DNA from: a virus
Strand: one strand, 5' to 3'
Length of the DNA stretch: 38,014 bases
Virus genome (UHGV): UHGV-0042156
The notes beneath the pieces were generated by a model that saw only the letters and a program-made list of their open reading frames with translations, was not told the DNA's origin and ran no database searches. How positions within the stretch are numbered: position 1 is the stretch's first letter; each line of letters starts with the position of its first letter. Below are positions 9,028 through 37,964 of this stretch, in pieces. Both the position numbers and the translations under genes were made by a program.

Positions 9028-9117
9028 NNNNNNNNNNNNNNNNNNNNNNNNNNNNNNNNNNNNNNNNNNNNNNNNNNNNNNNNNNNNNNNNNNNNNNNNN
9101 NNNNNNNNNNNNNNNNN
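9028..9117. other. Run of 90 N (assembly gap or masked sequence)
   Basis: Literal n characters; flanked on both sides by ccc. Confidence 1.
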
Positions 9118-14411: not shown

Positions 14412-14828
14412 ATGAAAAAGCTAACCTTTGAAATTCGATCTCCAGCACATCAGCAAAACGCTATTCACGCAGTACAGCAAATCCTTCCAGACCCAACCAA
14501 GCCAATCGTAGTAACCATTCAGGAGCGCAACCGCAGCATTCGGCAAAATGCACGCCTTCACGCGATGCTATCTGAAATAAGTAAGAAGGCTACATATCAT
14601 GGAAAAGTAAGAAATATTGAGTTTTGGAAGGGGTTATTCGTTTCTGGTTGGCAGATTGCAACCAACCAGCACCCTGAGATTATATCAGGGTTAGAAGGTG
14701 AGCTAATAAACATCAGAGAGAGTACGGCGACTCTATCTGTAAAAAAAATATCCGAAATAATGGACTACATAGAAGCATATTGTGCCATGAACTCAATTCA
14801 TCTTAGCGAATGGAGGAATTATGATTGA
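14412..14828 (+). CDS. ninB: NinB recombination protein (3' part divergent)
   Basis: MKKLTFEIRSPAHQQNAIHAVQQILPDPTKPIVVTIQERNRS matches lambda NinB as recalled, then continues in AT-rich divergent sequence to a new C-terminus. Confidence 0.85.
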   Translation: MKKLTFEIRSPAHQQNAIHAVQQILPDPTKPIVVTIQERNRSIRQNARLHAMLSEISKKATYHGKVRNIEFWKGLFVSGWQIATNQHPEIISGLEGELINIRESTATLSVKKISEIMDYIEAYCAMNSIHLSEWRNYD

Positions 14829-15394
14829 GGTTTGGGTAGATATCGAAGGGATTCCATTTTATCAGGTTAGCAATAAAGGAAATTTCAGGTCTATTACGAG
14901 GGAAGTTACAGTAACATCAACCAGACAGAGGCCATATAAGAAAATAATTAATGGCACTAGCGTAAAACCATTCAAGTGCAAGTCGACAGGATATCTTCAA
15001 ATAAAGGTATACGGTAAGAAATACAGCGCCCACAGGATAGTTGCGAAAGCATTCTGTACAGGGTTCTGTGATGGCTTGGTAGTTAATCACAAAAATGGGC
15101 AAAGAGATGACAATAGGGCTGAAAACCTTGAATGGGTATCACATTCTGAAAACTCAAAGCACGGATATAAACAAAATGGAAGAATACCTATATCGCTAGG
15201 TAAATTTAGTGGTGATCATCCTGCCAGTAAAGCTGTTATTTCTACTGACATGAAAACTGGTGAGGAGGTTTATTATGAAGCAGCTATGGATGCTGTCAGA
15301 GAAGGATTTGATAGTTCGTCAATTAGTCGTTGCTGTAATGGCGAAAGCTCATATCACAAAGGAAGATTCTGGCGATTTGCAAATGAAACAATGA
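14530..15394 (+). mobile_element. Putative HNH cassette: divergent ninB 3' segment plus HNH gene
   Basis: AT-rich block beginning where ninB diverges from lambda and ending where lambda-like ninB tail codons (KARWGDRAA) resume, now fused to the HNH ORF. Confidence 0.4.
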
Positions 15395-15423
15395 AAGCGA
15401 GATGGGGAGATCGGGCTGCATGA
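14821..15423 (+). CDS. HNH endonuclease (NUMOD4 plus HNH), C-terminally fused to ninB tail codons
   Basis: GIPFYQVSNKGNFRS (NUMOD4-like), VNHKNGQRDDNRAENLEWVSHSEN (HNH); ends ...[10 protein letters not shown]. Confidence 0.8.
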   Translation: MIEVWVDIEGIPFYQVSNKGNFRSITREVTVTSTRQRPYKKIINGTSVKPFKCKSTGYLQIKVYGKKYSAHRIVAKAFCTGFCDGLVVNHKNGQRDDNRAENLEWVSHSENSKHGYKQNGRIPISLGKFSGDHPASKAVISTDMKTGEEVYYEAAMDAVREGFDSSSISRCCNGESSYHKGRFWRFANETMKARWGDRAA

Positions 15424-16533: not shown

Positions 16534-16702
16534 CCCATCCCAATCCCTTCAATACCAGAAAGAAAGCGTCGAGCGGGCTTTAACGTGCGCTAACTGCGGT
16601 CAGAAGCTGCATGTGCTGGAAGTTCACGTGTGCTCAGATTGCTGCGCAGAACTGATGAGCGATCCGAATAGCTCAATGTACGAGGAAGAAGACGATGAAT
16701 GA
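16526..16702 (+). CDS. ninF: NinF
   Basis: Manual translation [58 protein letters not shown], near-identical to lambda NinF as recalled; below ORF-track size cutoff. Confidence 0.7.
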   Translation: MLSPSQSLQYQKESVERALTCANCGQKLHVLEVHVCSDCCAELMSDPNSSMYEEEDDE

Positions 16703-17204
16703 TGTTAAAGAAAAAGATATCCCCGGCTTTGAGGGTATATATAAAGTAAATGAAAATGGAGACATCATTTCATGCCGTAAATCAAAAAAATTATCTCATG
16801 GCATTAAACCAGGAGGATATGCATTTGTCGGTCTGTATCCAGGTGGCGGGAAAAGACCATCATATAAAATGGTTCACAGAATTGTTGCAGAAGTATTTAT
16901 TGATAACCCAGATGGCAAACCGGAAGTTAATCACAAGGATGGAAATAAACTTAATAATAAAGTTGAAAATCTTGAGTGGGTAACGCGAACAGAAAATGCG
17001 AAACATGGATTTGATTCCGGATTGCTTGTTCATGGGTTTAATCATCACTTCTGCAAACTAACGCCAGAACAAGTGAAATCAATATATAAATCAAAAGGCA
17101 AATACAGAGATATAGCCAAAGAATTTGGTGTTTGTGCGCAGACAGTGTGCAACATAAAAAACAAATCAGCGTACCGACGTTTTTTGGAGGGGATTGATGT
17201 TTAG
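16695..17204 (+). CDS. HNH endonuclease (NUMOD4 plus HNH plus C-terminal HTH)
   Basis: IPGFEGIYKVNENGDIIS, VNHKDGNKLNNKVENLEWVTRTEN, DIAKEFGVCAQTVCNIKN; overlaps ninF stop and next gene start; AT-rich. Confidence 0.8.
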   Translation: MNDVKEKDIPGFEGIYKVNENGDIISCRKSKKLSHGIKPGGYAFVGLYPGGGKRPSYKMVHRIVAEVFIDNPDGKPEVNHKDGNKLNNKVENLEWVTRTENAKHGFDSGLLVHGFNHHFCKLTPEQVKSIYKSKGKYRDIAKEFGVCAQTVCNIKNKSAYRRFLEGIDV

Positions 17205-28436: not shown

Positions 28437-28541
28437 ATGCCGATTCAGCAACTTCCGCTTATGAAAGGTGTCGGCAAAGACTTTCGAAACGCCGACTATA
28501 TCGACTATCTGCCAGTGAATATGTTGGCAATTTTGATATAA
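28437..28541 (+). pseudogene. Truncated original 5' end of gene 10 (31 native codons, then stop)
   Basis: [31 protein letters not shown] matches P22 gp10 N-terminus, then runs into ILI-stop at the insertion point. Confidence 0.65.
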
Positions 28542-29202
28542 TAAGTACATGAAAAATCGAAACTTTAAGGAGTAGATATGCTTTCTGAGAATGCTAAAGA
28601 TATACCTGGATTTGAAGGTGTTTATGCCGTAACAGAAGATGGCAGGGTGCATTCTCACTCACGTGTTGTTAAGGCTGCGCATGGCAGCACGCAACTCAGA
28701 AAGGGGCGCTGGTTAAAGCCTAAAATAAATCAGGGAAGGGTGCTTTATAATATCGGAGCAAAATGGACTTTTGCCCATCGAATCGTTGCAATGACATTCC
28801 TGCCAAATCCTGAAAACAAGCCTCAGGTAAATCATATTGATGGCAATCCACTCAATAATAACGTCAATAATCTTGAGTGGTGCACTCAAAGCGAAAACAT
28901 CAAACATGCATACGCCACAGGATTAAAGAAACCAATCAAGTTTTTCGGAACCAAGCACCCAAAACACAAGTTGAGTGATGACGATGTTCTTGCAATCAAG
29001 TCATCAAAAGAAAGCTTGTCAGTAATTGCGGCTAAGTACGGGATATCTAAGACCTGGGCAAGTAGGCTAAAGCGTGATGCTAACTGGGTTCATATAAAGG
29101 TTGATTCCAATGGCAATACAACAACTACCACTAATGAAGGGATTAGGGAAAAGTGCGGTTAATGCTGATTATATAGACCAACTTCCAGTCAATCTTTTAG
29201 CT
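28530..29202 (+). mobile_element. HNH endonuclease cassette inserted in gene 10, carrying a divergent copy of gene-10 codons 1-31
   Basis: 93-bp segment 29110..29202 encodes the same 31 residues as 28437..28529 with different, AT-rich codons; HNH gene lies between the two copies. Confidence 0.55.
28578..29162 (+). CDS. HNH endonuclease (NUMOD4 plus HNH plus C-terminal HTH)
   Basis: IPGFEGVYAVTEDGRVHS, VNHIDGNPLNNNVNNLEWCTQSEN, VIAAKYGISKTWASRLKR; 3' end overlaps restored gene-10 start. Confidence 0.8.
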   Translation: MLSENAKDIPGFEGVYAVTEDGRVHSHSRVVKAAHGSTQLRKGRWLKPKINQGRVLYNIGAKWTFAHRIVAMTFLPNPENKPQVNHIDGNPLNNNVNNLEWCTQSENIKHAYATGLKKPIKFFGTKHPKHKLSDDDVLAIKSSKESLSVIAAKYGISKTWASRLKRDANWVHIKVDSNGNTTTTTNEGIREKCG

Positions 29203-35774: not shown

Positions 35775-36059
35775 AAGCTTTCCTACAACAAGTCCGAACA
35801 TTAAGAACGCAAAGTTCAATAAATCTCTGTCCATAAATCCTCCTGTTTACCAAAACTATATCAAACTTTAACGCAATGCTGCGCAACTTAAGTGACTTTC
35901 AGGTTGATAACAGACACTCTTTTTTGCATGATTCCTTTAGACCATCACAATTGATGAAGAATCATGAAAAGAAGAACTCTTCTAAAGTCTTTGCTCGGCC
36001 TGACGTCACTCTTACCAGTTAAGTTTGCAGCATCTCAAAACCTGCAAGGTAAAAGTATA

Positions 36060-37964
36060 ATGTCAGACATTACACCCAATGTTGTAGTGAGTATGCCTTC
36101 GCAACTCTTCACTATGGCTCGTTCTTTTAAAGCCGTAGCTAATGGTAAAATTTATATCGGTAAAATTGACACTGACCCGGTAAATCCTGAAAACCAGATT
36201 CAGGTTTATGTGGAAAATGAAGACGGTTCTCACGTTCCTGTTTCGCAACCAATCATCATTAACGCTGCTGGATATCCGGTATATAACGGACAGATTGCCA
36301 AGTTCGTTACTGTGCAAGGCCATTCCATGGCTGTTTATGATGCGTATGGGGCGCAACAATTCTATTTTCCAAACGTATTGAAGTATGATCCAGATCAATT
36401 AGAAAGCAGGTTGTCGGAAACTAATAGTACAGTAATGATATCTGGAGTAACCGCATCAAAAATAGCAAGTAATGTTATTGCAACAGAATATCTTGAGTCG
36501 CCAAATGTATATGATGTGTTTGTTACGTATGGGCAGTCAAATAGCGCAGGTGAGGCTATTTTATCTGGCGATACGTCAGGCTTTCCTGCCGCTCTGCCGA
36601 AATCACTAATGTATGATTTTAGTGATGGAGCAATAAAGCCAATTATACAGAATGTGGTTAGTTCTTCTGGCGTTGCATCATCTGGACATGCATGGGGGGA
36701 ATTCGAGAATGAATGGTATCGCCTTAGCGGGCGCGGTTCAGTGGAGGTACACTGCGGCCGTGGCGCAACTACCATTGCACAGCTATCAAAAGGGACCACA
36801 TACTACACGCTGTTGGTAAATGCCGTGGCGTCAGCTAAACAGGCAATGATTGCCGCTGGTTTGCCTGTCGGTAAAACGTACGTGATGTACCACCAGGGTG
36901 AGTCGGATATGACGGCAGGGACAACATACAATGCTTATAGAGACAGCTTTATAGCCTTGATAGATGATCTGAAAACCGATATTAATTTTGATTTATTTTG
37001 TAATTTTACCGTTGGTTGCCCGGGGAACCGAACGGAAGAATCATGGGCTGCTATTCAAAATGCGCAAAGGTGGGTTTGTAATAGCAAGACTAACGCTGTG
37101 ACAGTATTTGACGGTTGCCCTTCATTTTTAAAAGGCGATGGCAATATTGGCACTACTGATGGAGGCGTTCACTATACGCAACGCGGTTACAATACAATGG
37201 GGCGAGAAGGTGCCAGAGGATTATGGTCATTAGTTAAAGGTGGGGCAAGCAATAAAACCTCAACCGATTTAGCACAATATTCAAATTTTGCCCCACCGTG
37301 GACAAGGGCGAAATTAGTCGCCGGTACTATTAAATACAGCAATGATAACGCTAAATGGGTTCTTTTATCTAAAGAAGTAAACAGTGAATGGAAAGTTTCC
37401 AATGCCCATAAATTAGTTGTTTCTGCTGATGGGGAATATTTTTCTGTAGAAATTGCAGACAATGCCGAAAACTGGTTTTATGCCGCCGCGGGCGTCGACC
37501 GCGCTACAGCTATAACAGGTGTCAGGTCCTACGCAGAACCTCTTCGTGTGGGAAATGCATTCACATTAAAAATTACTATGTATGCCGACGTTTCTTTCCT
37601 TGTTAATACAAAAACAGGAGTCATTCGTTATGGAAGACCGCCTTCAGGCTCTGGTGTCCCAGAGTGGATTAGAAATAATATCTCTGTTTCTGTGGTGAGT
37701 GCTGGCATCGTGGAAATAACGCATGGCCGCACTGCAACAATGCCATCAGCAACATATTACGCCACTAGTGACGGAACATTATCTGCGGCAAATGTATCTG
37801 TATATGCCGGGTCAACCACAACGACAAGAGTTTATTGTGATAAAGCAAACACTGATAATCCATGGGTGGTTGTTACACTTAGAGATTTACTAATTACTCC
37901 TGCCAACATGCAACATTACGATATTTCAATTAACTTTAACGGAATTTATGCGCCATCCGCATGA
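36060..37964 (+). CDS. Tailspike: P22-type head-binding domain fused to SASA/SGNH-like carbohydrate esterase domain
   Basis: [46 protein letters not shown] matches P22 gp9 head-binding domain; central [14 protein letters not shown] and DGGVHYT motifs resemble sialate-O-acetylesterase-type esterases; ORF-track start 35964 rejected. Confidence 0.85.

Follow-up and report, generated by a model that had tools for sequence, protein, structure and literature searches.

The receptor-binding domains of P22 gp9, Sf6 gp14 and HK620 gp9 are beta-helix endoglycosidases that cut polysaccharide, and to our knowledge all characterised P22-like tailspikes cut the polysaccharide that serves as their receptor; the CUS-3 gene is likewise annotated as an endosialidase tailspike. 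In current models of P22, Sf6 and HK620 infection, cleavage brings the tail needle to the membrane. Here we describe the tailspike of a complete P22-like prophage of Escherichia coli MS 115-1, a human colon isolate, represented by a stretch of 38,014 nucleotides (nt) (UHGV virus genome UHGV-0042156; hereafter, the window). Behind a head-binding domain of the P22 type, this tailspike carries a domain of the SASA/SGNH family of carbohydrate O-acetylesterases. We think it probable that the protein is an O-acetyl-directed, non-depolymerising esterase tailspike with which a temperate podophage of the P22-like (Sf6/HK620-type) group acts on the host O-antigen.

Tailspikes that deacetylate have been described in other phages. 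Gp63.1 of phage G7C (PDB 4QNL) deacetylates the O-antigen with no cutting and needs the host O-acetyltransferase wclK (Prokhorov et al. 2017); its enzymatic deacetylation is essential for infection, and wclK mutants are resistant. Shigella phages Moo19 (gp82) and B2 (gp48/49) have esterase tailspikes that depend on oacD. SGNH- or SIAE-like esterase receptor-binding proteins, some of which resemble 7KMM and SIAE, have been reported from Klebsiella and Acinetobacter prophages; a role as acetyl esterases linked to capsule type has been proposed for them, and in two cases shown (PMC13123978, PMC12115436). These systems, together with the deacetylating tailspikes of Pectobacterium phages, are functionally the nearest to the MS 115-1 tailspike. 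As with G7C gp63.1 and the Moo19 and B2 proteins, we are dealing with a virion-attached receptor-binding protein that has an SGNH-fold esterase and not a depolymerase, and the hosts of all of these phages each have a dedicated O-acetyltransferase; no homology was found between the esterase domain of the MS 115-1 tailspike and that of gp63.1. The Klebsiella and Acinetobacter proteins have tail-fibre or second-receptor-binding architectures and associate with the K locus, whereas the MS 115-1 tailspike is a P22 head-binding fusion in E. coli and associates with the O-antigen locus. Our literature search turned up no account of an esterase receptor-binding domain in a tailspike of the P22-like (Lederbergvirus) type. 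The principle of the deacetylating tailspike is already established, and the advance offered here is incremental: its placement on a P22-like chassis and a testable link to a specific host acetyltransferase.

Architecture and predicted catalytic residues of the tailspike

The tailspike gene runs on the forward strand, as do all features given below for the tailspike, from an ATG at 36060 to a stop codon ending at 37964 and encodes 634 amino acids (aa) plus the stop. It closes the late operon of the prophage, and its product is 100% identical to RefSeq WP_024198346.1, a "phage tailspike protein" of E. coli MS 115-1. A preliminary description of the window had assigned exactly these limits to the gene and a P22-type head-binding domain to its product, and both assignments were recovered: aa 1-113 (36060-36398) match the P22/Sf6-type head-binding, or virion adaptor, domain over its full length (Pfam PF09008, E=3.7e-67, profile positions 1-113 of 113) and end in a YDPDQ junction. 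The tailspike N-terminus gives a near-mismatch-free alignment (E=1.8e-64) to residues 1-119 of Sf6 gp14, the structure of which has been solved in complex with gp8 (7SG7), and the head-binding domain is also a strong match to P22 gp9, for which a solved structure likewise exists. Over aa 1-113/120, tblastn identity of this domain is 88% with Sf6 and 93% with HK620. P22 gp9, Sf6 gp14, HK620 gp9 and the CUS-3 endosialidase thereby share with the MS 115-1 tailspike the type of head-binding domain, the gene position and the YDPDQ junction, at the place of which a "boundary sequence" is annotated in CUS-3. Among the P22-like phages listed as matches, likeness to the tailspike begins at aa 1 and stops at about aa 113-147, at or shortly past YDPDQ. 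A longer in-frame open reading frame (ORF) starts at 35964 with a signal-peptide-like N-terminus; we rejected it because the Pfam profile, Sf6 gp14 and the RefSeq protein all begin at 36060, and for the same reason the 32 in-frame codons upstream of the ATG (35964-36059) are probably untranslated intergenic sequence. A scan for promoters and terminators around the gene gave results no better than shuffled sequence.

Behind the junction lies a neck or linker (aa 114-150, 36399-36509), in which the AlphaFold2 (AF2) model predicts, with low confidence, a short helix at aa 132-143. The neck motif LRxxLAxxNSxVxIAGVxAS...YLExPDVYD is kept behind P22 head-binding domains, Tail_spike_N domains and adaptors without a Pfam family, and because it is conserved behind such different adaptors we regard the neck as part of an exchangeable cassette. 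It leads into the SASA/SGNH carbohydrate O-acetylesterase domain (aa 151-395, 36510-37244), which is identified both by Pfam and by its predicted fold. Residues 151-385 match SASA (PF03629) at E=5.8e-14 over profile positions 2-221 of 226, with a score of 52.7 bits compared with a curated gathering cutoff of 24.8 bits. In the AF2 model, which was built on 50 homologs, the esterase region has pLDDT values mostly >90 and adopts a predicted three-layer alpha/beta/alpha SGNH fold of the SASA type. Foldseek matched it to At4g34215 (2APJ, TM 0.72-0.74), 1ZMB, XAC1771, SIAE, Shigella phage B2 gp48 and generic GDSL esterases. The proposal in the preliminary description that an esterase-like domain takes the place of a glycosidase is therefore upheld by profile search and structure prediction alike, the model containing a SASA-type SGNH alpha/beta domain and no beta-helix glycosidase fold. 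The SASA esterases (PF03629, formerly DUF303) At4g34215 (2APJ), Clostridium acetobutylicum 1ZMB, E. coli NanS (3PT5), XAC1771 (7KMM) and mammalian SIAE (8F9Q/8F9R) are, by their PDB descriptions, standalone esterases and not virion proteins, whereas here the domain is part of a phage tailspike, flanked by the adaptor and neck on one side and by a beta-rich domain of 239 aa on the other, at 14-20% identity to them. NCBIfam assigns no family to the tailspike protein, and its PHROGs v4 matches are to N-terminal tailspike families and, in part, to the "tail fiber" family phrog_4201 (aa 222-387), none of which spans the cassette.

The motifs GQSNSAGE, HQGESD and DGGVHYT occur once each in the tailspike. 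In an alignment of 50 homologs reaching down to 23% identity, the invariant residues map onto SGNH blocks I, II, III and V. Block I, GQSNSAGE (aa 158-165, 36531-36554), contains the predicted nucleophile Ser160 (nt 36537-36539) and Asn161, and its residues G158, Q159, S160 and N161 are invariant. Block II, SSGHAW (36678-36695), has invariant S207, G209 and W212, with H210 and A211 nearly so, and Gly209 is predicted to contribute to the oxyanion hole. Invariance extends to Q279, G280 and E281 of block III, HQGESD (aa 278-283, 36891-36908), in which D283 is at least 90% conserved, and to H371, Y372 and Q374 of block V, DGGVHYT (aa 367-373, 37158-37178), which has the conserved form G-V-H-Y-T-Q and includes the predicted general base His371 (nt 37170-37172). 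The GQSN and QGESD blocks align to their equivalents in 2APJ and 1ZMB, where block III reads W(Y/H)QGESD. The earlier reading of these motifs as SASA/SGNH catalytic blocks thus stands for the GQSN serine, for QGE and for His371; it fails for the Asp of DGGVH, which is not conserved. This residue, Asp367, occupies position His-4, within a 2-3 residue insertion confined to the >75%-identical subgroup and P0027. In most of the remaining homologs, Glu or Asp stands at His-3, and other enterobacterial homologs read GTE-GVH. NanS, a related SASA enzyme, reportedly acts via a Ser-His dyad.

The lack of the canonical Asp at His-3 throughout the clade of this tailspike could be taken to indicate a SASA domain that is catalytically dead or very slow, a lectin-like module that merely recognises the acetylated glycan. 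Block III is also variable elsewhere, D283 being replaced by Asn in E. coli 23GD11002 and Klebsiella phage KP8, and Q279 by His in E. coli ECONIH6. We nevertheless find an inactive domain quite improbable. Ser160, Asn161, Gly209, Gly280, Glu281 and His371 are invariant over the 50 aligned sequences, which is the pattern that selection for catalysis would produce, and the SGNH-fold tail proteins assayed so far (G7C, Moo19/B2 and two from Klebsiella prophages) are active esterases.

The C-terminal 239 residues (aa 396-634, 37245-37961) form a nearly all-beta domain that is modelled confidently (pLDDT 87) and has no known enzymatic fold; it belongs to no Pfam family, its fold matches are only weak, and its probable role is distal trimerisation and/or glycan binding. 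The distal domain is less conserved than the esterase core: identity of the core and of the C-terminal domain is 67-70% versus 38-42% for the sister clade and Klebsiella phages, and 92% versus 82% for the tailspike of E. coli EC6622. With no function or Pfam family assigned to it, the C-terminal domain might harbour a cryptic site with extra depolymerase activity, for which the esterase would only prepare the substrate; a recent preprint describes a Salmonella phage epsilon15 tailspike with a protruding esterase domain. Such an additional activity would surprise us greatly. Domain and fold searches across the whole tailspike found no beta-helix, glycosidase, lyase or other depolymerase fold, and the right-handed parallel beta-helix endoglycosidase domain expected of a P22-like tailspike is absent. 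Classical P22-like tailspikes cut polysaccharide, whereas the MS 115-1 tailspike has neither a beta-helix nor a depolymerase fold, and deacetylation in place of cleavage is an interpretation supported in silico, by sequence comparison and the predicted model.

Polysaccharide loci of the lysogens

Because the host of a prophage was once infected by that phage, we compared the polysaccharide loci of hosts that carry the cassette, using 5,426 complete E. coli genomes. Clade A, the group to which the MS 115-1 tailspike belongs, was delimited by at least 89% nucleotide identity and counted at coverage of at least 80%; its module was present in two genomes, MS 115-1 (at the lambda attachment site) and EC6622 (at argW). 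The MS 115-1 locus has O155-family wzy and wzx genes; between wzx and ugd it encodes a hexapeptide-repeat acetyltransferase of 155 aa (V9Z46_RS08830), and gla follows. EC6622 has rfbBDAC, along with glycosyltransferases and a polymerase for which BLASTP (E<=1e-3) detected no homology to the MS 115-1 counterparts. All that the two O-antigen loci have in common is a post-gnd module of wzx, acetyltransferase, ugd and gla (L007:17023-21121 in MS 115-1, L008:27114-31211 in EC6622), in which amino acid identity is 90% for wzx and 87% for the acetyltransferase and ugd and gla are near-identical. GenBank labels EC6622-type strains as O155, although it is the wzy of the MS 115-1 type that receives the O155-family name from NCBI's pipeline. 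Other genomes with the O155 wzy are EC20-4B-2, 2017-02-1CC, C10 and VCSW7, and STEC309 and NWU_1/3/4 are of the EC6622 type.

The flippase-adjacent hexapeptide acetyltransferase gene of this module was detectable in only 11 of the 5,426 genomes, and both clade A hosts are among them; the chance that two independent lysogens would both fall within the 11 is nominally ~4e-6, for a comparison that was defined after seeing the data. This result bears on whether the esterase might be active on some other acetylated glycan, such as capsule, colanic acid, enterobacterial common antigen (ECA) or O-acetylated sialic acid, the last of these suggested by homologs annotated as "sialate O-acetylesterase". 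Were the target as widespread as colanic acid or ECA, there would be no reason to expect both clade A hosts within so small a set, and no sialic-acid genes occur in the MS 115-1 O-antigen region examined (the kps region was not checked). We consider a target of this other kind rather unlikely. The cassette could be keyed to the acetyl mark made by one family of flippase-adjacent hexapeptide acetyltransferases, and host range would then follow the epitope across O-antigen and capsule backbones that are otherwise unrelated; we put this forward tentatively, as a possibility that is itself doubtful.

A sister clade, clade B (54% amino acid identity), was found in exactly three genomes: ECONIH6, 98195 and 23GD11002. 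The ECONIH6 tailspike is carried on a P22-like prophage at argW, and the 98195 tailspike gene is 100% identical to it. In 23GD11002, a 729-aa clade B protein (L010:4275-6464) is encoded on another type of prophage, where its gene lies between terL and a holin-lysozyme cassette, and the esterase cassette of this protein has 94% nucleotide identity to that of ECONIH6; evidently, among hosts that share one capsule type, the cassette has passed from one phage chassis to another. All three clade B hosts belong to the 28 of 5,426 genomes that have a common Klebsiella-like group-1 capsule locus, which in ECONIH6 is arranged as wzi-wza-wzb-wzc ... flippase-acetyltransferase-gnd-rfbBADC-ugd-gla. The acetyltransferase of this locus, which was found in 28 of the 5,426 genomes and is again a flippase-adjacent hexapeptide protein, shares 49% identity with its MS 115-1 counterpart, and ugd and gla are present too. 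Homologous locus-encoded hexapeptide acetyltransferases in the hosts of both clades lend independent circumstantial support to an O-acetyl-directed tailspike. An O8-type ABC-transporter O-antigen cluster, the wzt gene of which is interrupted by IS1, adjoins the ECONIH6 capsule locus; the two lie in the regions L012:7867-33299 and L011:6222-15128.

Several observations weigh against an O-acetyl-directed esterase acting on the O-antigen. With the classical Asp missing from His-3 of the tailspike, the enzyme would have to operate with a non-canonical triad or else with a dyad. O-acetylation of the O155 O-antigen was not confirmed in the literature consulted, which mentions only beta-GalA and beta-GalNAc. 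Strain IH5 has an 89%-identical fragment and no detectable acetyltransferase homolog, in a region where the assembly is scrambled. Finally, the host association is based on roughly four independent events, and which locus counts as "cognate" was decided post hoc. The IH5 match lies beside "fliF" and at face value suggested a chromosomal esterase, which we set aside because it sits in concatenated gene fragments: this stretch (L003, NZ_CP168949.1 5075941-5088521) strings together partial pilV, wcaK, intS, fliC, the esterase fragment, fliF, RHS and vasK and is apparently an assembly artefact.

Relatives of the cassette and prophage context

Judged by sequence, the cassette family is a modest-sized family of phage receptor-binding proteins, with ~60 clusters (50% identity) at E<=1e-30 in an exhaustive HMMER search of 1.84 billion representatives. 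In a collection of 5.8 billion proteins, the cassette stands behind at least three adaptor arrangements (PF09008, PF18668 [Tail_spike_N] and N-termini without a Pfam family), and some homologs additionally bear PF03906 (Phage_T7_tail). Cassettes that are 86-93% identical occur behind several of these adaptors, which argues for recent horizontal exchange. Public protein collections already list the domain pair PF09008+PF03629 as a precomputed combination; the phage collection that we searched held no sequenced phage with the full-length combination of head-binding and esterase domains. Proteins of Klebsiella phages, among them KP8, VLCpiA3a/b, phi1_146018 and K48PH164C1, match aa 107/150-632 at 51-54% identity, and those of Vibrio phages at 27%. 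The homolog in the N4-like phage KP8 is annotated as a member of the SGNH-hydrolase family and is followed by a second tail spike gene, a position that we take to be that of gp63.1 in G7C. K48PH164C1 is a Przondovirus (T7-like) in which the homolog is the second receptor-binding protein, and the genomes of VLCpiA3a/b and phi1_146018 are about 40 kb.

The MS 115-1 prophage lies between ybhC and ybhB, presumably the lambda attachment region, with the integrase at one end and the tailspike as the last gene at the other. Its morphogenesis genes are P22/Sf6-like and comprise terminase, portal, scaffold, P22-type capsid, gp4, gp10, needle and three ejection proteins. In the RefSeq annotation of the identical prophage, the tailspike gene follows the three ejection-protein genes as the last late gene, and no O-antigen-modifying genes of the gtr or oac type are annotated after it. 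An HNH endonuclease gene (28578-29162) is inserted between the head-completion genes gp4 and gp10, just downstream of a short partial "packaged DNA stabilization protein" fragment (28437-28529); together, 28437-29162 looks like a homing-endonuclease insertion. The nin region contains two more NUMOD4/HNH endonuclease genes (14821-15423 and 16695-17204). The early region is broken by a run of 90 N (9028-9117), the flanks of which are joined directly, with a 3-nt overlap, in the complete genome NZ_CP146665.1, and so the run is a scaffold or masking artefact; the window is a separate (draft or masked) copy of the same strain as NZ_CP146665.1.

Proposed mechanism and implications

From these comparisons we infer how the MS 115-1 tailspike might work as a deacetylating, non-depolymerising receptor-binding protein. 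Homology to solved complexes suggests that the tailspike, presumably trimeric, would dock onto the tail hub by its head-binding domain. Receptor binding falls to an exchangeable cassette made up of the neck, the SASA-type SGNH esterase and the beta-rich distal domain, and the esterase and distal domains would bind O-acetylated O-antigen, the likely target being a polysaccharide of the O155 type whose acetyl groups are added by the flippase-adjacent hexapeptide acetyltransferase. Ser160 would serve as nucleophile and His371 as base, Gly209 and block III would form the oxyanion hole, and the enzyme would hydrolyse the O-acetyl ester and leave the sugar backbone intact. Cycles of binding, deacetylation and release could then carry the virion, in the manner of a ratchet, down through the O-antigen until it reaches the outer membrane, a mechanism already put forward for G7C gp63.1.

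A P22-like virion equipped purely with an esterase would be a natural variant with which to probe whether receptor cleavage is needed for podophage entry, and the P22 system offers excellent structural and genetic tools. If the tailspike does read an acetyl mark, a P22-type tail would cross the O-antigen layer and trigger DNA ejection while the polysaccharide stays uncut, and the "deacetylation-driven motor" model could be tested directly in the podophage system that is understood best. Candidate hosts are the 10 other acetyltransferase-positive genomes, and prediction of host range and serotype for such prophages would hinge on the O-acetyl modification gene, not on the O-serogroup backbone.

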